Part shown: in pieces, positions 1-10,966 of the stretch
Position numbering within the stretch: position 1 is the stretch's first letter
How the letters are laid out: every line of letters starts with the position of its first letter
Virus record (IMG/VR): IMGVR_UViG_2671180454_000005
DNA from: a virus
Taxonomy: Duplodnaviria; Heunggongvirae; Uroviricota; Caudoviricetes
DNA: 10,966 nt
Direction: 5' to 3' (one strand)
Position numbers and translations under genes: made by a program
The notes under the pieces: generated by a model
Databases searched by the model: none
Told to the model about the DNA's origin: nothing
Seen by the model: only the letters and a program-made list of their open reading frames with translations

Positions 1-367
1 CCTCAAAAACACCATCATACACTAAATCAGTAAGTTGGCAGCATCACCAGCCTTCTTGAGGCTACCACCTGTTTTCAGGTGTCATTCAGACGTGATTTGC
101 CCCAGATTGGGAAAGCACGCTTTTTTCTCAGCTATCGTCCTCTTATTTTGCCGTTACATTTCTTTTTGCATTCTAATGATTAATTTACAATAATAATATC
201 GGTAATTATTGAGTAATAATAAATTAATTATTGCAAATGTAATTTAATTCCATCTTCGCGTTATATTCCAATCTTTAATCTCCGCATGGAACAAGTTGCA
301 TGCGTGACTATATTAAGACGACTTATAACCACCAAAACATTTGCTTTGCAAGCAAAAACAGTGACCA

Positions 368-396
368 TTGACTCTAAGAAAATTCCGATCTATTGT
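368..396 (+). promoter_or_regulatory. Candidate sigma70 promoter (TTGACT, 17-bp spacer, TATTGT), predicted start about 403-405
   Basis: -35 TTGACT at 368-373 (5/6 to consensus), 17-bp spacer, -10 TATTGT at 391-396 (4/6). It is 35 bp upstream of the 431 ATG. AT-rich DNA contains many promoter-like hexamers (another is TTGCAT-17-AATAAT near 166-194), so specificity is low. Confidence 0.25.
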
Positions 397-430
397 TAGG
401 GTCATCAAAGTTACTTAACAGTATTCCGAA

Positions 431-532
431 ATGAAAATACAAAGCAAGCTAATTGTCTTATTAAACATTATTATTGCATTTATATTATTTGAGCTTTTAG
501 CTCAAAAATTTGGTTTGAGTACATTATTTTAA
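431..532 (+). CDS. Hypothetical 33-aa hydrophobic peptide (MKIQSKLIVLLNIIIAFILFELLAQKFGLSTLF); speculative
   Basis: ATG at 431 to TAA at 530-532, with an apparent single transmembrane-like segment. A promoter-like sequence lies upstream and a terminator downstream. There is no convincing Shine-Dalgarno, and AT-rich DNA inflates hydrophobic codons, so this may be chance. Confidence 0.2.
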   Translation: MKIQSKLIVLLNIIIAFILFELLAQKFGLSTLF

Positions 533-681
533 AGCAAGATAAACAATATCGGGCACTCTAGTTTTTATAATTAACAATTAAACGTCCATAAAATGTTATT
601 TACTTTTCTTCGCTATTGTCATATCTTAATATAGTGGCTTACGCCACTCTACTTTCATCACATTTTGTACGTTTATGTACT

Positions 682-714
682 CGCCATGAAGCTCTTTCAT
701 GGCGATTTTTTATT
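682..714 (+). terminator. Intrinsic terminator on the plus strand, convergent with tfa (9-bp stem CGCCATGAA / TTCATGGCG, loop GCTCT, then ATTTTTTATT)
   Basis: Perfect 9-bp inverted repeat at 682-690 / 696-704 followed by a T-rich tract at 705-714. On the minus strand the hairpin is not followed by a U-tract, so it is mainly a plus-strand terminator; it could also contribute to ending the tfa transcript. Confidence 0.55.
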
Positions 715-797
715 CTTAATCCAAGAACATACTCCCTACCTATAGCAAAATCACTTTTTTAACAAAAGAATAACGTATTTAGGTAATCATTACGAAT

Positions 798-1379
798 TTA
801 CCCTATAGGTGCTACTGGCCATTCAATATCCGGTGCAGTTGATGTATCAACACGGTTCAGCAACACCCGATACTTTTTCCAAGCTTCCAGCAACAAGGTT
901 TCTTTCTCCGTTGCGATCTCCAGATCCACAGCATCCTGAAGCGGCGCTATATGCTCACTGGCTACCTGCATCAGGCTGTTTTTTGTTTCTTCCGCCTCCC
1001 GGATCCGGAACAGTTTTTCTGCTTCCGTATCCTTCACCCAGGCTGTGCCGTTCCACTTCTGAAACTCCCCTTCCGGGGATAACCAGGTGACATTTTCCGG
1101 TAATGAGCCGAGTTCAGAAATAAATAACGCGTCGCCGGAAGCCACGTCATAAACCGTTTTACCCCGATGATCTTCAACGAGATGCCACGATGACTCATCA
1201 CTGTTGAAAACAGCCACGAAACCAGCCGGAATATCTGGCGGTGCAATATCGGTACTGTTTGCAGGCAGACCTGTATGAGGCGGAATATATGCGTCACCTT
1301 CACCAATAAATTCATTAGTTCCGGCCAGCAGGTTATAAATTTTTATGGTCCGTGCTTGTTCACTCATTCTGAATGCCAT
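798..1379 (-). CDS. tfa: Tail fibre assembly protein Tfa (193 aa)
   Basis: [62 protein letters not shown]... is near-identical to lambda Tfa as recalled. The ATG at 1379-1377 overlaps the stf stop by one base (TAATG), with a GAGG Shine-Dalgarno inside the stf 3' end. Confidence 0.9.
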
Positions 1380-4300
1380 TATGCGAGCCTCACAATATAG
1401 TTAAATGCGATGTTTTTGACGGTGTTTTCCGCGTTACCAGCAGCGTTAACGGTGATGGTGTGTCCATGTGAACCAATCGCAACAGAGTGCGTATGAGCAC
1501 CAATACCGACAGTATGCGCGTGTGCACCCGCAGATGCTGCTGTGCCGGACAGTGAGTGTGTATGGTTTCCTTCTGAAGATGATTTACCTACCCATTGGGA
1601 GGTGCCACTGGTTAATGAGCCACTGATACCAACCTGATTAGTCCCGCTAACTTGAGTACTCCCTGCCGGAAACATTCCAGTAGGTTGACTCCCGCTATTC
1701 GTTCTGGGCCCAGTCTGACTATGTTGGTGGGCCCCAGCTGAACTTGTAGAGCCGCTCAGACTGTGCGTATGCGCCCCGGTGTTATTCGTGGATTTAGTGC
1801 CGTAATCAAACGACGATGTGGTTTTCGTCCCCAAATCCGTACTGGATGCGCTGGCGCTGTGGGTGTGCGATTTAATGCCATCCTGTTCCTGAGACAATAC
1901 GGCACGACCACTGGCGGGCTTGCCCTTAATCGTCCAGCCACGCATATCAGGGATCACGCCTGACGGATAAGCGGCTGCAAGTTTCGGGTAAGCAGATTTG
2001 TCAAAAGTCTGCCCCTGCATCAGGGCATAACCAGACGGAACGGTATCTGATGGCCACGGGATTGGTGCACCGACTGGATAAAACTCTGCAGGAGGATGAG
2101 CCGAGGTGTAAAGCTGCGCCCACGGCGACCAGTTTGCGTCGGTCGTATCCCGTCGTGAACGAATAAATGCCGGAGCATGAGCACCGCTTGTACCACTCCA
2201 GCCGATGAGTAACTCACCTTCGCCAACGGCTGTCATCCCTTTCAGGTGAATGATATTTCCATACGCTGTTGGATATCCGTTGTTATACACCTCGTATAAC
2301 TCAAGACCTGCTGCCCCCTGCGTATTGTCTGTCAGCGCGGCTACCCGACCTTTTGAAGCCAGATTAACTGATGATACTGCTGTTCCACCTGACGGTAGCG
2401 CCCCGATCTCTGATGCCGTTGGCTTATTTCTGGAGTTATAGTCCCTTCGCCAGCCAGGTGAATAATCTGTTCCGTGATTAATATAGGTAAACTGGGCGTT
2501 GGTTGTTCCGCCACCGCTGGATGTGGTCGGAGTGGTAATGCGGATCGTCATCGCTGACTTTATCCCCATTACTTCAATGACAGCTCCGGCGAGATGAATA
2601 TTACCGCAGCCAGTATCAGTAATGATTTTATTATTGCCATAAGACCAGGAACCCTTGCACATCCAGTATGGATGGTTAAATGCTCCCTGAGAATCCAGCC
2701 ACTCGATAAACTGTGCAGTCGTCCAGTTTCCTGTTGTTGTGCTTACTGACCCACCGAAGGCACGGCAGGCACCAATATTTTTCGTAAAGGTGTCTTTGCC
2801 AGGGATATCCGCACCGTTCTGATCTTTCTGCAGACGTTTCTCAGCATTGTCATTGGCTGCTTTTACTGCCTTTGGCGTTGCCGCCAGCGTTTCAGACGTG
2901 CTGTTGGTCGCGCTGCTTAGCTGGATTATCCCTTTCTGTGCTGTCGTTGCATCCTGTGCGGTGTATTTCCCGTTAGCCAGGTCATACGCGGCCTTAACGG
3001 CTTTTGGTGTTGCCGCCAGTGACTCGGAAGTGCTGTTAGTCGCACTACTGAGCTGTACTATCCCCTTTTTCGTCGTGCTCGCATCCTCAAGCGCCACGGC
3101 GGATGCAATATCCTCTGCCCGTTTTGCCGCTGTCTCAGCGCGCGTTGCTGCAGATTCCGCCGTACTTTTGCTCTGAGCTGCTGCCGTCGCACTACCAGCA
3201 GCCTCTGTCGCCTTCGTGGATGCCGTCGTGGCGCTGCCCTTCGCTGCTGACGCCTGTCTGGTCGCCTCATCTTTTGAAGCAGACGCCGATGATGCCGATG
3301 ACGCCGCCGAACTGGCGGACGATGCGGCAGCCGTTTTTGAGGATTCTGCACGGGTTTCCGACGCTTTCGCGTTCGTTTCGGATGTCTTCGCTGCGGAAGC
3401 TGACCTCGCTGCTGCCGTGGCCTGCTCAGTGGCTTCGCCAGCCTTCGTTGTGGCTGTTGAAGCGGATGATGCGGCGCTTTCTGCCGATTTTCCGGCGGCG
3501 GTGGCACTGGCTGAGGCCTGCCCGGCACTTGTTGACGCGGCGCTGGCAGACGACGCAGCCGCTGTTTTTGAGCCTGCCGCAGCTGAGGCACTCTGTCCCG
3601 CTGCCGTTTCAGAAGACCTGGCGTTCGTCTCGGACGTTTTGGCCGCCTTCGCAGAATTTGCAGCCGCCGTCGCCGAGGAAGCTGCGCTACTGGCGCTTGA
3701 TGATGCGTTCGTTTCTGATGATTTTGCCGCCTCTTTTGAAGCCGACGCATCCCGGGCTGAGGTGGCAGCTTCTGACGCTTTCGTGGTCGCGGTGGATGCA
3801 GAAGTGGCTGCTGATTGTTGTGACGCTGCCGCATTCGTTTCTAACGTTTTCGCCGCACCGGCACTGGTAGCCGCCGCGCTTTTTGAGGACTCTGCAGCGG
3901 CAGCACTTTTTGAGGCTTCAGTGGCCTTTGTTGATGCCGTTCCTGCGCTGGAAGACGCTGACTGAGCCGACGAAGCGGCCTGTCCGGCTGACGTGCTGGC
4001 TGCACGTGCTGAATCTGCAGCATCAGTCGCATGGGTTGCCGCCTCACGGGCTGATGTGCTGGCATCGCTGGCTGATTTCTTCGCGGCTGCCGTGTTCTGT
4101 GCCACCGCGGACGCGTTACGCGCCACCTCTTCCACCATCAGCTCAAAACGGCGCAGTGCCTCCGGACGGGCATCATCCTCCGTCATGGCACCGAGAAAAT
4201 CATTCAGCGTACCGGGTCGGGAATCTTCATACACGGTGATGGTCCCGGCATGTGACGGCGGGAATCCTTCCACCAACAGAATAACGCTGTACTGACCGTA

Positions 4301-4462
4301 CTCAACGTCCATGCTGTAACGCCCGGCTTCATCCGGATTTTCTGAGGCCAGCGTGTTCACCACCACCGTGGTGCTGTTACGTTTTGCTTTCAGCTGGATT
4401 GTGCAGTTCTGTACCGGTTTTCCTGTGCCGTCTTTCAGTACACCTGAAATCTTTACTGCCAT
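1379..4462 (-). CDS. stf: Side tail fibre protein Stf, 1027 aa, mosaic (lambda-like N- and C-termini, expanded Ala/Ser/Thr-rich shaft, extra central domain)
   Basis: ATG at 4462-4460 preceded by GGGGTG. N-terminus [36 protein letters not shown]... and C-terminus ...[49 protein letters not shown] match lambda Stf as recalled, including the His-X-His repeats. The track ORF 1379..4705 is a run-through across the N gap; everything upstream of 4462 is artefact. The stop overlaps the tfa ATG. Confidence 0.85.
2854..3078 (-). repeat. Intragenic tandem duplication (2 x ~129 bp, 43 codons) inside stf, encoding TT(K/A)(K/Q)GI(V/I)[11 protein letters not shown](S/T)[11 protein letters not shown]
   Basis: Two consecutive near-identical 43-aa units (aa ~463-505 and ~506-548). 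Lambda Stf, as I recall it, has this motif once. Confidence 0.75.
3082..4114 (-). repeat. Low-complexity Ala/Ser/Thr-rich coding repeat region inside stf (about aa 117-460), with recurring AAKTSETNA-type units
   Basis: Translation is dominated by A/S/T with repeated KTSETNA(A/R/K)SSE and [10 protein letters not shown] motifs. The same DNA yields long spurious ORFs in other frames and on the plus strand, which is typical of GC-rich codon repeats. Confidence 0.7.
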
Positions 4463-4496
4463 ATTCACCCCACAAAAAAGCCCGCCTGAACCGGCG

Positions 4497-4629
4497 NNNN
4501 NNNNNNNNNNNNNNNNNNNNNNNNNNNNNNNNNNNNNNNNNNNNNNNNNNNNNNNNNNNNNNNNNNNNNNNNNNNNNNNNNNNNNNNNNNNNNNNNNNNN
4601 NNNNNNNNNNNNNNNNNNNNNNNNNNNNN
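4497..4629. other. Scaffold/assembly gap (133 N)
   Basis: Run of n characters. Sequence on the two sides is not contiguous: IS interior on one side, stf upstream hairpin on the other. Confidence 1.
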
Positions 4630-4873
4630 GTCTTTCTGGCTGGCGGTTCAGGGTATTTGAGGTAGCGTCTGACCGTCCGTTCAGAGCAACCAATCTGAGT
4701 CGCAATATCGACGATGTACGCGCCCTGCTGGCGCATTTGCTTTATCATGTAAAAGTCCTCTCTGCTCAGCATGTTGATGTCCTTTCTGGTGTGAGAACCT
4801 TAAGGAAACAACATGTTGGGTGGAGCGGACAATCCAAATGGCGAATTACCGTCTTATATCACTGGCGCTGACA
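4630..4873 (-). mobile_element. istA: IS21-family insertion sequence, left-end fragment (terminal ~100 bp plus first 47 codons of the istA transposase), running into the N gap
   Basis: Minus-strand ORF starting at 4772 encodes MLSREDFYMIKQMRQQGAYIVDIATQIGCSERTVRRYLKYPEPPARK, which I recognise as the helix-turn-helix N-terminus of IS21-family IstA. A candidate IS terminus begins 5'-TGTCAGCGCCAG at minus-strand position 4873, the TG start being typical of IS21 ends. The family call is from memory; the exact boundary is uncertain by a few bp. Confidence 0.6.
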
Positions 4874-5185
4874 CTTCATCACCTCCGGACGTAAATCACC
4901 ATCCTTTGGTGCATTCAGAAACGCGTTCAGTGTCCCCGGTGCATCAGTCGGTGCCACATCAATATCCCCGACACGGGTTGGCTGCCAGCCGTTACAGTGA
5001 AGCGCAACCTCGTAATACCCCGGCTCAGCCTCAATCACATAAGCACCGTTATTGTCCGTCACGCAAGTGGCAACAACGTGTGCCACAACGGTCGGACTGG
5101 TTCTTCTGGCCCGCAGTTCAATCGCACAATTTACGACAGGTTTACCCGCCCCATCTTTCAGTACACCTGAAATCTTTACTGCCAT
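4859..5185 (-). pseudogene. stf: Truncated side-tail-fibre gene: N-terminal 104 codons of an Stf-like protein, fused to 4 codons plus stop from the adjacent IS terminus
   Basis: ATG at 5185-5183. [28 protein letters not shown]... is a divergent allele of the Stf N-terminus at 4462 ([28 protein letters not shown]...), and the two share ...PGTLN(A/D)FL...RPE. The ORF ends ...PEVMK-CQRQ*, where TGTCAGCGCCAGTGA is the start of the IS-like segment. The track's upstream extension (MTARWFRRAFCGVN) reads through the terminator hairpin and is not credible. Confidence 0.65.
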
Positions 5186-5196
5186 ATTCACCCCAC

Positions 5197-5221
5197 AAAA
5201 AGCCCGCCTGAACCAGCGGGC
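5197..5221 (-). terminator. Intrinsic terminator downstream of lom (GCCCGC-TGGTTCAG-GCGGGC plus TTTTT on minus strand), immediately 5' of the stf-like start codon
   Basis: Plus strand 5197-5221 aaaagcccgcctgaaccagcgggc. A partial copy (gcccgcctgaaccggcg) sits at 4480-4496 against the N gap, upstream of the full stf. Confidence 0.6.
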
Positions 5222-5248
5222 AGTCATAACACTGTGTTACCTGGCTAA

Positions 5249-5848
5249 TCAGAACTTATAACCGACACCCACGATGAAACCGTCAGTGCGCCAGTCACCA
5301 CTGCCGGAACCTTCATAAGCAAGGTCAATGGCCACGGATTCGGTCGGGTTAAACTGCACGCCAGCCCCCCACGCCAGAGACGTGTTGCTGTGGCGACCGC
5401 CATCACTTCCGGTCAGCACATCGTGCGTTTTCCCCTTGTTGTCAGTTACGCGGAGATAATCCCCGGAGAAGGTCGACACACGGCTGTAAGCCACGCCCGC
5501 CATCGCATACGCGCTGAACCATTCATTCACGCGCACAGACGGCCCCGCCATCACGCTGAACCAGCGGTTACGCACGGAATCCTCATGCCAGCGGGTATCG
5601 CTGTAATGCGTTTTTTGCTCATCTTCAGCGTTGGCATAACTGAATGACGTAATCAGCCCCAGCGTGTCCGTAAACTCATAACGGTATTTCACGTTAATGC
5701 CCTTCAGGTCATCGCTGCCTGGCATATCAGTATGGGTCTGAAGATACCCGGCGCTCAGCGTGGACTGATGTTCAGACGCCCATGCAGGCGCACCGGATAC
5801 GGCCAGACAGATGGCTGCGGACAAAATGGCTGCACAAACTTTACGCAT
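5249..5848 (-). CDS. lom: Lom / Ail-family outer membrane beta-barrel protein (199 aa), apparently intact
   Basis: Predicted signal peptide MRKVCAAILSAAICLAVSGAPAWA. Motifs GINVKYRYE, AYAMAGVA and the C-terminal AYEGSGSGDWRTDGFIVGVGYKF match lambda Lom as I recall it. GAGAGG Shine-Dalgarno 8 nt upstream of the ATG; stop TGA at 5249. Confidence 0.9.
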   Translation of the reverse strand: MRKVCAAILSAAICLAVSGAPAWASEHQSTLSAGYLQTHTDMPGSDDLKGINVKYRYEFTDTLGLITSFSYANAEDEQKTHYSDTRWHEDSVRNRWFSVMAGPSVRVNEWFSAYAMAGVAYSRVSTFSGDYLRVTDNKGKTHDVLTGSDGGRHSNTSLAWGAGVQFNPTESVAIDLAYEGSGSGDWRTDGFIVGVGYKF

Positions 5849-5872
5849 AATTACCTCTCGCTTTTCTGCAAT

Positions 5873-5896
5873 AAAAAAGGCACCATTTCTGGTGCC
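5873..5896 (-). terminator. Intrinsic terminator (GGCACC-AGAAAT-GGTGCC plus T-run on minus strand) upstream of lom
   Basis: Plus strand aaaaaaggcaccatttctggtgcc; identical to the copy at 6509-6532. Confidence 0.55.
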
Positions 5897-5915
5897 CGTA
5901 TCTGGGTTATAAAAT

Positions 5916-5982
5916 TCAGCTAATCGTGATGCCTGCAGTGGCTTTCTTCATCACCACAACCAGCAAATCGCTGATACTTGCT
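5916..5982 (-). other. Isolated 67-bp J 3'-end fragment (identical to 6552..6618) abutting ambiguous base N5983
   Basis: 5849..5982 is base-for-base identical to 6485..6618 (lom upstream region, terminator, last 22 codons of the J copy). Homology ends at N5983, after which the sequence switches to lom-downstream DNA. Confidence 0.7.
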
Positions 5983-6009
5983 NGTCATAACACTGTGTTA
6001 CCTGGCTAA

Positions 6010-6484
6010 TCAGAATTTATAACCGACACCCACGATGAAACCGTCAGTGCGCCAGAGACGTGTTGCTGTGGCGACCGTCATCACTTCCGGTCAGCACATC
6101 GTGCGTTTTCCCCTTATTGTCAGTTACGCGGATATAATCCCCGGAAAAAGTCGACACACGGCTGTAAGCCACACCCGCCATCGCATACGCGCTGAACCAG
6201 CGGTTACGCACGGAATCTTCATGCCAGCGGGTATCGCTGTAACGGGTCAGCTGGCGATTCTTGTCTCCTGCATAGCTGAATGACGTCACCAGCCCCAGCG
6301 TATCCGTAAACTCATAACGGTATTTCACGTTAATCCCGTTCAGATCATCACTGCCGGGAACGTTGGTCCGGGCATGAAGATACCCCGCGCTCAGCGTGGA
6401 CTGATGTTCAGACGCCCATGCAGGCGCACCGGATACGGCCAGGCAAATGGCTGCGGACAAAATGGCTGCACAAACTTTACGCAT
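6010..6484 (-). pseudogene. lom: lom-like outer membrane protein gene, disrupted copy (42-bp in-frame deletion plus 83-bp frameshifting deletion relative to the copy at 5249..5848)
   Basis: Start MRKVCAAILSAAICLAVSGAPAWASEHQSTLSAGY is identical to intact lom. Aligning against 5249..5848 shows a 42-bp deletion between 9-bp direct repeats CGCTGAACC (removes SVMAGPSVRVNEWF) and an 83-bp deletion between 6-bp direct repeats CGCCAG (copy-1 coordinates 5295..5377). The second deletion shifts the frame, giving a premature TGA at 6044. The native stop position is conserved at 6010-6012. Confidence 0.75.
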
Positions 6485-6508
6485 AATTACCTCTCGCTTT
6501 TCTGCAAT

Positions 6509-6532
6509 AAAAAAGGCACCATTTCTGGTGCC
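6509..6532 (-). terminator. Intrinsic terminator downstream of the J fragment (GGCACC-AGAAAT-GGTGCC plus T-run on minus strand)
   Basis: Plus strand aaaaaaggcaccatttctggtgcc; same structure as 5873-5896. Confidence 0.55.
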
Positions 6533-6551
6533 CGTATCTGGGTTATAAAAT

Positions 6552-7985
6552 TCAGCTAATCGTGATGCCTGCAGTGGCTTTCTTCATCACCACAACCAGC
6601 AAATCGCTGATACTTGCTGTGGGATACCAGCCATTTACCAGCCATGCCGATACAGAAAACTCCAGCGTCATGTGACCGTGACCGGCAGGCATATCAATAA
6701 CACCCGTATATATCAGCGTATTATCCAGGGTCGTTCGGTTATAAATTTCAGCACCGTTTTTCTTCACTATCAGGCGGCATGACGAATAAATATTGTTATT
6801 CTTCCGCTCATGTTTAGCACCGCGAAACGCCACCGCGGGAATAACAATTTGCCGATCAAACGGCTGATCGTCATAAACCCTGACGGTAATGGTCCCTGAT
6901 GGCCACCTCTCCGGTGCCCGGGAGTCCCGTGGGAAAGGTTTGCCCACTGTTTTAACGAGATCGCCTTCAATCTGGTTCGCGGACAATTTTCCCAGAACCC
7001 GACAGTTCTTATTAATCGTGACGTTGTTGAGCGTCCCGGAGTTCGCGTTCACGTTACCGCTGATATCGGCATTTTTCGCCGTCAGCCGTCCGCCAGGTGT
7101 CAGGGAAAATGCCGGAGGATTACCGCCGCTGGTAATGGTCGGAGCCGTCAGGCATTTCAGGAACACGTCGTTCATGAATATCTGATCGCCCTGACCAACA
7201 AACATCGGCTTTGTGTTGCCATTCGCAGGATTAATCATCGCAATCCTGTCTGCCGCCAGCAGCACCTGACTCTGCATTCCTGCTGGCGTATTCTCAATAC
7301 CGGCACCGATACCCGCAATATAAAGGCGTCCGTCCTTCATCTGTTGCAGCTTCACAGCCCACATGCTGTTCAGGTTATTATTTGTATCAACCTGAACTTT
7401 CTGTATCTGCTGGATTGCAGCACTCTGATTTTCCAGTTTTTTATTGACGGTTTGCGTGATTTCATTGCTGACATTCGTAATGGACGTCCTGATTTCAGTC
7501 AGGTCCGGCGCAAGCTGACCGTTATCAATCTGCGTCCACAACTCCTTGCCGAGATGCGTTTTATTGATCAACCCTTTATAAAAATTCAGATAACCTTCTG
7601 CATCATCGCTCGCCCGACCGATGGCCTCCACAAATGCCGATTTGCCAACGGTGTTCACACTGCGAACGTAAAAATAATAATCATGGCCCGGCCTGATATT
7701 GATACTGGCGGCTATCCAGTACAGCGCCGTGCCAAGATAGCGGGCGCTGGTTTCAACCTGCCTGATATCCGCAATCCGCTTTTCCGAAAACCAGAACTCA
7801 AACTGCACCGTCGGGTCATATACAGCCAGTTTCGGGACCGCCGTTATCTGAAAATACCCCGGTATCAGTTCAATAGTGACAGGCGCTGCCGGTGCCGCAA
7901 TCCGGAACGATACCGACGCCGGATCGCCCTGCTGCCCCCGGGCATTTACCGCCCGGACTGTCAGACTGTAATTCCCCAGCGCCAG
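6552..7985 (-). pseudogene. J: J C-terminal fragment (about 478 codons), second copy, 5'-truncated at N7986; carries a different C-terminal receptor-binding domain from the main J
   Basis: In-frame translation ([32 protein letters not shown]... [10 protein letters not shown]) aligns to the main J copy from about 9535 to 8082. The two are near-identical over about 320 aa, then diverge over the last ~155 aa (6552 to ~7015 versus 8082 to ~8565). Stop TGA at 6552-6554. No start codon or N-terminal 650 aa, so not a complete gene here. Confidence 0.8.
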
Positions 7986-7986
7986 N

Positions 7987-8011
7987 AAATGGCTGCACAA
8001 ACTTTACGCAT
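7987..8011 (-). other. 25-bp lom 5' fragment (ATG plus 8 codons, MRKVCAAI) ending at ambiguous base N7986
   Basis: Minus-strand ATGCGTAAAGTTTGTGCAGCCATTT is identical to the first 25 nt of lom at 5848 and 6484, preceded by a GAGAGG Shine-Dalgarno. The sequence past N7986 is J-internal, not lom. Confidence 0.7.
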
Positions 8012-8032
8012 AATTACCTCTCGCTTTTCTGC

Positions 8033-8059
8033 AATAAAAAAGGCGTCATTCCTGACGCC
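8033..8059 (-). terminator. Intrinsic terminator downstream of J (minus-strand hairpin GGCGTCA-GGAA-TGACGCC followed by a T-run)
   Basis: Read directly: plus strand 8036-8059 is aaaaaaggcgtcattcctgacgcc, giving a 7-bp GC-rich stem, 4-nt loop and 6 U on the minus strand. It lies between the J stop (8082) and the lom start codon (8011). Confidence 0.6.
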
Positions 8060-8081
8060 ATTTATTGGGGTTATAAATATT

Positions 8082-10966
8082 TCAACGAATACTGATGCCG
8101 GAAGCCGCTTTTTTGGTCACAATCACCGTACAGTCGGTGATATTGCCTGCCCCCTGATTGCCTTTCTGGAAAATCTTAAACTCCAGAGTGACGCTACCAC
8201 CACCACTAGGCATATCAATAACTGCACTGTAACTACCGGGAATGGCACCTTTAGTTTCTCTGGATGCGATTAATACGCCGTTTTTGCGAACTTCAAAACC
8301 ATAACCCGTGTATCGCGTGCCTCCTGGGTTATTTCCGCTCCCCGGATCGTCATACGCTATACCGTTAAAAATAATGGGCGGAATAATAATCTGGCGGTCA
8401 AAGTTATGATCATCGCTTATGGTGACTGTAACCGTCCCGTTTGGTGTTTCCGTGTTACCCCACGTACCAGCCTGTTTCGGAAATGATTTGGATACAGCTT
8501 TAACGAAGTCACCTCTGACCTGAGTCGCCTCCAGCATGCCCTTAATCGTACAGTTTTCATTTACCGTGACATTGTTGAGCGTCCCGGCGTTCGCATTCAC
8601 ACTGCCACTGATATCCGCATTTTTAGCGGTCAGCTTTCCGTCCGGAGTCAGGGAAAATGCCGATGGATTTCCACCGCTGGTAATGGTGGGGGCCGTCAGG
8701 CGTTTCAGGAACACGTCGTTCATGAATATCTGATCGCCCTGACCAACAAACATCGGTTTTGTGTTGCCATTCGCAGGATTAACCATCGCAATCCTGTCCG
8801 CCGCCAGCAGCACCTGACTCTGCATGCCGTCAGGGGTGTTCTCAATACCGGCACCAATACCCGCGATATAAAGGCGTCCGTCCTGCATCTGCTGCAGCTT
8901 CACAGCCCACATGCTGTTCAGGTTATTATTTGTATCAACCTGAACCTTCTGTATCTGCTGAATTGCCGCACTCTGGTCTTCCAGTTTCTTATTGACGGTC
9001 TGCGTGATTTCATTGCTGACATCCGTAATGGACGTCCTGATTTCAGCCAGGTCAGGCGCAAGCTGACCGTTATCAATCTGCGTCCACAGCTCCTGAGCCA
9101 GATGGGTTTTCCCTATCTCGCCTTTGAAAAAATCCAGATAACCGGATGCATCATCACTCGGCTGACCAACAGCCTCCACGAATGCCGATTTGCCAACGGT
9201 GTTCACACTGCGGATATAAAAGTAATAATCATGGCCCGGTTTGATATTGATACTGGCGGCTATCCAGTACAGCGCCGTGCCAAGATAGCGTGCTGTGGTT
9301 TCAACCTGCCTGATATCCGCAATCCGCTTTTCCGAGAACCAGAACTCAAACTGTACCGTCGGATCATAAACCGCAAGATGCGGCGTGGCGGTTATCTGAA
9401 AATAGCCCGGCGTCAGCTCAATCCGCGACAGCGCTGCCGGTGCGGCAATCCGGAACGATACCGACGCCGGATCGCCCTGCTGCCCCCACGCATTTACTGC
9501 CCGGACTGTCAGCCTGTAGTTCCCCAGCGCCAGTTGTGTGAAGCGGTAAGTGGTTTCCGTCGTCCGGGCCGTGCTGACCAGCCGCTCACTGCCGTCATCC
9601 GCTGTTACGGTCAGACGGAGCAGGAAGCTCACGCCCTTCACCACCTTCGGCGTGTCCCAGCGCGCCAGCACCTGATATTCCCCGCTGTCTGCGGTGACTT
9701 CGGCAGTCAGGTGCTGCACCGCTGGCGGCGTGACACCATTCACCGTGCCGCTCTGGTCGCCGTCAAAGTGCGCCCCGTTATCCACGATGGCTTCTTTTTC
9801 CGGCACATGCTGCACGGCGGTGATGGCATACGTGCCGTCGTCGTTCTCACGGATACTCACGCAGCGGAACAATCGCTGGTGCAGCGTCGGCAGCTTCAGC
9901 CCCCACACGCTGTATTCAGCAACACCGTCAGGAACACGGCTCACTTTTACCTTCACGCCGTCGGTGACGGACTGGACCTCCACGCTGACCGGATTCCCCT
10001 GCCCGTCAACCAGGCTTATCAGCGTGGTGCCGGAGGATGGCAGCGTGATTTCACGGTCGAGCGTCAGCGTCCGGGTCTGGCTGTTCACCGCCAGCACGCG
10101 CCCGCCGGTGCGGATACCGGCATAGTCATCATCGCAGATTTCAATGACATCGCCCGGTACATGACGAAGCCCTTCAGCACCCACGCTGAAATCCACGGTC
10201 TGCGTCTCCAGCAGTTCCGTTTTAATCAGCCACAGCCCGGCGCGGTGTGCCTGCCCCCGGCTGGTACAGCCAAAGGCATCCATCTTCGTGACATTACGAC
10301 CGTAACGGGCAATGGCCTGCGTATCCTCCACAAGCTCTGTCGCCGTCTCCCAGCCGTTATCCGGGTCAATCCAGTTCACCTCAACGGCATTATGGCGGTC
10401 TTTCAGGGCGCTGAAACTGTAGCGGAACGGCGCGCCATCATCCGGCATCACCACATTACTGCGGTTATAGGCCCACACCTTATCCGACTGTCGGTCCTGC
10501 ACGAACGTCAGCGTCTGCCCGTTCCATACCGGCATACAGCGCATCGCCGAGCAGAAATCACTGAGCACATCCCACGCCTTGCGCTGTGTGGTCAGCCAGG
10601 CATTACAGGTGATGCGCGGCTCCGTGCTGCCAAAGCCGTCCGGCACCGACTGGTCACAGTACTGGCCGATGACATACAGCGCCCATTTATCCACATCTGC
10701 CGCACCAAGACGTTTCCCCATGCCATAGCGCGGATGGGTCAGCATATCCCACAGACACCAGGCCATGTTGTTGCTGTATGCCGGTTTTAACGTTCCGTCC
10801 CAGATACCGCTGTATTGCCGCGTCTGCGGATTATAGTTCGACGGCACCTGCAGAATGCGCCCGCGAAGATGATAATTACGGCTCACCTGCTGGCTGCCGA
10901 ACTGCTCCGAATCCACCTGTACGCCGACCAGTGCCGTGTTCGGGTAGCACTGTTTCACATCGATGA
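8082..10966 (-). CDS. J: Host specificity protein J (tail tip / central tail fibre), 5'-partial: the reading frame runs off the window edge
   Basis: Open frame of 958+ codons on the minus strand. The translation ([57 protein letters not shown]... [21 protein letters not shown]...) matches lambda J as I recall it. The track's first 'M' at 10958 is an internal GTG (Val), and the frame stays open to 10966. Stop TGA at 8082-8084. Confidence 0.9.

Follow-up and report, generated by a model that had tools for sequence, protein, structure and literature searches.

Side tail fibres are dispensable for plaque formation by phage lambda, and laboratory lambda PaPa reportedly carries a frameshifted stf gene (orf-401/orf-314), a finding credited to Hendrix and Duda in 1992. 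That case shares with the locus described here an inactivated side-tail-fibre gene that leaves an N-terminal ORF. On the other hand, lambda PaPa is a viable phage with a single-base frameshift, whereas the Shigella sonnei gene was broken by an IS insertion plus a deletion, and most structural genes of its prophage are gone as well.

The uninterrupted gene that resembles this locus most closely encodes WP_046880233.1, a 470-aa 'prophage tail fiber N-terminal domain-containing protein' that is found in enteroinvasive E. coli CFSAN029787 and in eight other complete genomes. From the end of lom to the first 312 nt of the fibre gene, the two loci show 99.7% nucleotide identity, and they have the same neighbours, with J and lom upstream and a DUF4376 gene downstream. 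They differ in that the fibre gene of S. sonnei breaks off after codon 104, lacks codons 105-248 and keeps a 3' remnant of 95% identity.

Hawkey et al. (2020, PMC7373316) described a genome-wide IS expansion with pseudogene formation in Shigella, and the locus reported here shows the same process with the same IS types, IS21 and IS600, in the same species. Both elements belong to the 12 IS types that are listed there for S. sonnei 53G (PMC7373316). The IS21 family is characterized by terminal inverted repeats of the form 5'-TG...CA-3' together with repeated transposase-binding motifs, and a 5-bp target-site duplication was reported for IS5376 (PMC10122671). For IS21 itself, the type element of the family, we used a complete 2130-bp copy from E. 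coli FDAARGOS_943 (L002:3501-5630), which has TG...CA termini, imperfect terminal repeats and a 4-bp flanking duplication, CATC. It encodes an IstA of 390 aa, which has rve and Mu-transpos_C_2 domains and scored 284 bits for NF033546 (cut-off 160), and the AAA+ helper IstB of 265 aa, which scored 302 bits for NF038214 (cut-off 200).

The window, by which we mean the whole stretch of 10,966 bp that was analysed, is the entire draft record CXDT01000145.1 of S. sonnei (assembly GCA_001249065.1). On its minus strand, the ORF 5185..4859 has 108 codons and a stop. Residues 1-104 matched positions 1-104 of the 134 positions of PF08400, 'Prophage tail fibre N-terminal' (E 9.8e-37), and the score of 126.4 bits was well above the gathering score of 26.6. 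This agreed with the sequence-only reading, which had taken the ORF for the N-terminal domain of a side tail fibre. PF13620 also matches the ORF, with its beta-sandwich part complete (residues 5-83), and neither the native start codon nor the ribosome-binding site has been lost. The contig that carries the ORF begins after a single N at 5983 with the last 60 nt of J, followed on the minus strand by an intact lom of 199 aa (5249..5848; its identical counterparts in L003 and L023 carry PF06316 Ail_Lom) and then by the fibre gene. Between lom and the fibre gene lies a terminator-like hairpin with a T-run (5202..5221, minus strand), 16 nt upstream of the ATG of the latter. Judging from the domain content and from this J-lom-stf order, which is that of lambdoid phages, the interrupted gene is a lambdoid stf. 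It is predicted to be non-functional as a gene, stopping after 104 native codons, where a functional Stf has a full-length ORF with a shaft and a C-terminal receptor-binding part.

The insertion point was read by comparison with the uninterrupted allele of CFSAN029787 (L001:6076-7488). The native 5' part of stf, 104 codons on the minus strand (4874..5185), is identical to that allele up to base 4874 (L001:6076-6387). Before the break the gene reads GAG GTG ATG AAG (the end of GAGGTGATGAAG); the intact allele continues with CGCTTTGAGG, in place of which the window has TGT CAG CGC CAG TGA. The alignment diverges after base 4874, and therefore the last four codons and the stop of the ORF (C Q R Q and TGA, 4859..4873, minus strand) are supplied by the insert; they are nucleotides 1-15 of IS21. 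The insertion thus lies 312 bp into stf, after codon 104, close to the distance of about 310 bp that had been estimated from the letters of the window, and the ORF does stop four codons into the IS, as proposed. The sequence-only reading had named two findings that would speak against it, the lack of an IS21-family match for 4630..4873 and a native stop codon at 4859, and neither was found.

The element begins at window position 4873 (TGTCAGCGCC). From there to 4630 the window is identical to nucleotides 1-244 of the complete IS21 (244/244 nt) on the minus strand, a stretch that holds the terminal inverted repeat of the left side (about 4873..4820) as well as the 5' untranslated region. The ATG of istA (4772) stands 101 bp into the element and at the same place as in IS21; a start about 100 bp on had been expected. 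The first 47 codons of istA (4632..4772, minus strand), which form its helix-turn-helix region (Pfam HTH_23 and HTH_7), are readable before a run of 133 N. With this run, the IS end and the ORF, the whole range 4497-5185 given for the feature is accounted for. The terminus is TGTCA, and the left end TGTCAGCGCCA pairs at 10/11 positions with the reverse-complemented right end TGTCAACGCCA, the latter taken from the complete copy, as the window holds the left end only. In the complete copy there is also a second similar terminal block (GACGGTAATTCGCCATTT and GACCGTTATTTGCCATTT), and over about 50 nt the left end matches the reverse-complemented right end imperfectly. The terminal repeats are in this way those of the IS21 family. 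As regards the protein, IstA of the IS21 family is a DDE transposase with a helix-turn-helix at its N-terminus; the 47-aa IstA fragment gave only helix-turn-helix hits, and its best NCBIfam match, NF033546, reached 23.5 bits against the cut-off of 160, the fragment being short. The membership in IS21 rests on nucleotide identity, because this fragment is too short for the Pfam and NCBIfam family cut-offs. RefSeq names the matching element 'IS21-like element IS21 family'. The inserted element is not only an IS21-family element, as had been proposed, but by nucleotide identity IS21 itself. IS100 of Yersinia, initially considered as the source of the IstA N-terminus, was dropped, with RefSeq naming IS21 and with IS21 listed for 53G.

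What follows the first 244 nt of the element was read directly in nine long loci of S. sonnei (L003, which is CP010829.1, and L023-L030), which lie on chromosome-scale or large contigs. In L003, codon 104 of stf is followed by IS21 nt 1-428, then by a complete IS600-type element of 1264 bp in the opposite orientation with GTT on both flanks, and then by IS21 nt 429-1098. The next segment is a second IS600, which starts with an abrupt junction at its nt 89 and runs to its normal end at nt 1264. From codon 249 (the equivalent of L001:6821), stf then resumes and stays in frame for 222 codons to its native stop, with no start of its own, and the DUF4376 gene comes after it. The IS21 parts of L003 are 99.8% identical to the complete IS21 over nt 1-428 and 99.9% over nt 424-1098, and across the S. 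sonnei loci the identity over nt 1-1098 is about 99.8%. The junction spacings are common to the nine loci, save for length differences of 1-2 nt.

A complete element with istA and istB, 2-2.5 kb long, had been expected in the N run next to the left end. Instead, the interval between the break of stf and its resumption is 3.54 kb in the nine long loci and consists of IS21 and IS600 with no istB, and neither the window nor these loci hold the istB and right terminal repeat of a complete IS21. The lost parts are IS21 nt 1099-2130 (with the right terminal repeat, istB and the C-terminus of IstA), codons 105-248 of stf (433 bp) and the first 88 nt of the second IS600. A look for a target-site duplication flanking the IS had also been suggested. 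If of 4 bp, it would be GAAG at this site, but none is readable in the nine long loci, because the right junction of the IS21 copy is deleted. The expectation that the tail-fibre frame would go on beyond the IS was borne out in part: the frame does resume, as described, but with the 433 bp missing. Compared with the type element, the S. sonnei copy is dead, being interrupted by IS600 at nt 428 and ending at nt 1098, and it lacks istB, the right repeat and a readable duplication. From these nine other S. sonnei loci we infer that the window strain has the same IS600-nested, truncated structure beyond the end of its contig. The 3' remnant of stf and the DUF4376 gene (L003:13855-15069 versus L001:6821-8032) show 95% identity to the uninterrupted locus, against 99.7% for the 5' part. 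This difference suggests a recombination mosaic inside the fibre gene.

The most parsimonious reconstruction of the order of events would be as follows. IS21 would first have transposed into stf after codon 104, its left end providing the four codons and the stop that make the 108-codon ORF. A copy of IS600 would then have inserted into istA, and a second copy into stf. Finally, a deletion of about 1.55 kb, from nt 1098 in istA into the second IS600, would have taken away everything of IS21 beyond that point, with the remainder of istA, the istB gene and the right end, together with 433 bp of stf. Because of these insertions and the deletion, both stf and the IS21 copy are dead.

The prophage that hosts the interrupted gene, here called prophage B, has the order M, L, K, I, J, lom and broken stf in L003 and L023. 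In the closed genomes, a Q-like antiterminator and a tRNA-like cluster are followed by IS600 fragments, a 121-aa ORF and M, and the 121-aa ORF matches only the C-terminal 52 residues of a tape-measure protein. Between the Q-like antiterminator and M, the lysis, head and tail-shaft genes are absent from the closed genomes. These gene losses indicate that prophage B is defective and unable to form particles, in line with the defective prophage that had been offered as one reading of the orphan ORF. The tRNA-like cluster lies at L003:1000-1330, downstream of the Q-like antiterminator and immediately before the IS600 block, which stands in place of the lysis, head and tail genes. At the other side, L003:15300-18749 adjoins the prophage with a four-gene ABC metal-transporter cluster, which encodes an ABC ATPase, a ZnuA-type binding protein and two ABC-3 permeases. 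CFSAN029787 has an ipaH pseudogene, and not this cluster, after the equivalent prophage end.

The window places the broken gene directly before an intact stf and its tfa, and this arrangement had led to a model of one prophage with two adjacent stf genes, in which a complete IS21-like element sits in the upstream stf and its remainder is hidden in the 133-N gap (4497..4629). The order seen in the window, broken stf with IS, gap, stf and tfa, favours this model, and so does the fact that the IS end is a genuine IS21 end. The make-up of the record speaks against it. The record consists of four small contigs that are N-joined at 7986, 5983 and 4497-4629. These Ns are taken as contig joins and not as low-quality bases, because the sequence jumps abruptly there between unrelated parts of J, lom and stf; the gap is thus not the only break, the single Ns being abrupt joins as well. 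The first piece carries J (10958..8082, minus strand) and the start of lom and ends at the N at 7986, where lom is left at its codon 9 and the sequence goes on in the middle of a J gene. The second piece has the C-terminal half of another J (ORF 8000..6552, minus strand) and a shortened lom (146-aa ORF 6484..6044, minus strand), and at 5983 it changes from the region downstream of a lom gene to the J 3' end of the third piece. After the 133-N gap, the fourth piece opens with the tail of a lom terminator (minus strand), which precedes the intact stf.

The pieces were compared by BLAST with two loci of the closed assembly GCA_965230885.1, where prophage A lies at 1.27-1.29 Mb (L018) and prophage B at 1.95-1.97 Mb (L023) of one contig. 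Piece 10966..7987 matched prophage A best (99.9%), as did piece 4496..1 (100%, equal to L018:9967-14462), while piece 5982..4630, with lom, the broken stf and IS21, matched prophage B best (100%). The pieces on the two sides of the gap are therefore parts of loci about 680 kb apart, and prophages A and B are separated by about 680 kb in GCA_040189005.1 too (L013 and L024). What stands after the gap is the lom terminator and the stf upstream region of another prophage, neither the right end of an IS nor a continuation of the broken stf, and in the long S. sonnei loci the IS21 copy lacks the istB and the right end that the gap was supposed to hide. With the flanking pieces 100% identical to two distant loci, we regard the model of two neighbouring fibre genes in one prophage as very improbable.

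Evidently, then, the scaffold is a short-read one, in which four repeat-bounded contigs from the two lambdoid prophages are interleaved; across the 133-N run, the IS21 end from prophage B has been linked to the lom terminator from prophage A. That a second stf stands beside the first is an artefact of the scaffold, because the pieces map to two prophages about 680 kb apart. The suggestion that the IS explains the break in the scaffold holds in so far as the contig ends inside a multi-copy IS, but the N run itself joins contigs of different loci. The third piece reaches 244 nt into IS21, and sister draft assemblies stop about 50 nt in.

Piece 7985..5984 showed 97.8% identity to prophage B (33 mismatches) and then 100% to prophage A over its last 216 nt. 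Its lom has a deletion of about 42 nt relative to both prophage copies, and its 146-aa lom ORF was found in no other assembly of the collection. This piece is probably a collapsed or chimeric repeat contig. It was also considered as part of a third prophage, and this was rejected, as its lom ORF occurs in one assembly only and its identity switches from prophage B (97.8%) to prophage A (100%). In strain 53G, the end of the second piece and the start of the fourth are only 4 bp apart. In practice, gene order across the Ns, the single Ns included, should not be taken as real, because the scaffold interleaves contigs of two near-identical prophages, and an N run beside an IS end need not conceal the remainder of that IS.

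Prophage A carries the intact fibre genes, a stf of 1027 aa (1379..4462, minus strand) with PF08400, Phage_fiber_2 and Collar domains, and a tail-fibre assembly gene, tfa, of 193 aa (798..1379, minus strand; PF02413 Caudo_TAP on the identical gene). In the closed genomes this stf is not adjacent to the IS21-broken gene and directly follows J and a truncated lom. The lom of prophage A is a pseudogene in S. sonnei, with 160 aa in 53G versus 199 aa (window 6044-6060; L019:9420-9902); its frame is shifted near the 3' end by the loss of about 83 nt between short CTGGCG repeats. On the plus strand of window 2847-4295 there are several long ORFs (100-258 aa), which are either antisense to the Ala/Ser-rich repeat region of the 1027-aa stf or not in its frame. 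Rather than genes, these ORFs are probably artefacts of composition, caused by the repetitive coding sequence of the fibre shaft. The scaffold ends 47 nt inside another sequence (1..47, minus strand), which reads GGTGATGCTGCCAACTTACTGAT... and which we take to be the IS1 terminal repeat. In the closed genomes, IS1 insA is called just beyond the equivalent of window position 1 (L018).

The sequence-only reading had further proposed that a free N-terminal domain could compete with full-length Stf for the attachment site on the virion. More broadly, the truncated fragment might have been kept for some benefit, for instance by competing in a dominant-negative manner for the side-fibre docking site of virions of prophage A or of superinfecting lambdoid phages. 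The preserved start codon and ribosome-binding site and the complete PF13620-type beta-sandwich would fit such a role, as would the presence of the fragment in many S. sonnei assemblies, where its reading of 122 aa from an upstream ATG, also present in CP010829.1 for example, is indexed in 543 blocks of the collection (the 108-aa ORF and the 122-aa reading being alternative calls). However, the fragment covers 104 of the 134 positions of PF08400, so that the last 30 are missing, and its identity to the N-terminal part of the Stf of prophage A is no more than 50%. It also lies behind the terminator-like hairpin, no promoter-like site was found in the 1.35-kb piece that carries it, and the late-gene block of its prophage is lost. 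Its uniformity in S. sonnei, whose genomes are closely related, is no sign of selection, because a shared ancestral insertion could produce it. Laboratory lambda with its frameshifted stf still forms plaques, and we know of no interference by the N-terminal product of that gene. Retention for a benefit is thus a very doubtful explanation. Likewise, there is only a slim chance that the 104-residue fragment is expressed and acts as a decoy at the side-fibre docking site of lambdoid virions, whether of prophage A or of incoming phages; if this were true, it would be an interference protein created by an IS. The best-supported reading of the 108-codon ORF is that of a pseudogene remnant, which is probably without function.

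The 24-nt junction, GGTGATGAAG joined to TGTCAGCGCCAGTG, was present in 16/16 other fetched S. sonnei loci, and several of these lie on chromosome-scale contigs, some of about 4.8 Mb. By megablast of the junction region, it was absent from all 5426 complete E. coli genomes, 9 of which have the intact allele (99.7% identity). In a species-representative genome collection, in which S. sonnei is not necessarily among the representatives, the exact 24 nt gave 0 hits. The insertion is real, because the same junction occurs in other S. sonnei assemblies, chromosome-scale ones included, and it appears confined to S. sonnei within the collections searched. The remaining alternative, that the junction is an assembly chimera at a repeat with no real insertion, can point to the untidy scaffold, with its collapsed- or chimeric-looking piece 7985..5984 and a lom ORF unique to one assembly, but it is almost certainly wrong, as the identical junction stands in the 16 other loci and the break coincides exactly with the first nucleotide of IS21, as transposition predicts. 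Public closed genomes already contain this exact structure. In the texts of the papers searched, that of PMC7373316 among them, this specific insertion was not found described.

Taken together, the data make it highly probable that the broken stf is a fossil of IS-driven decay in the defective prophage B of S. sonnei, and that the window is an interleaved scaffold of two prophages. The interruption is an ordinary instance of IS-driven gene decay in an IS-rich pathogen, an event already on record. Its biological weight is minor: it adds one more case of the IS-mediated gene decay that is typical of Shigella, in a prophage remnant that is unable to form particles.
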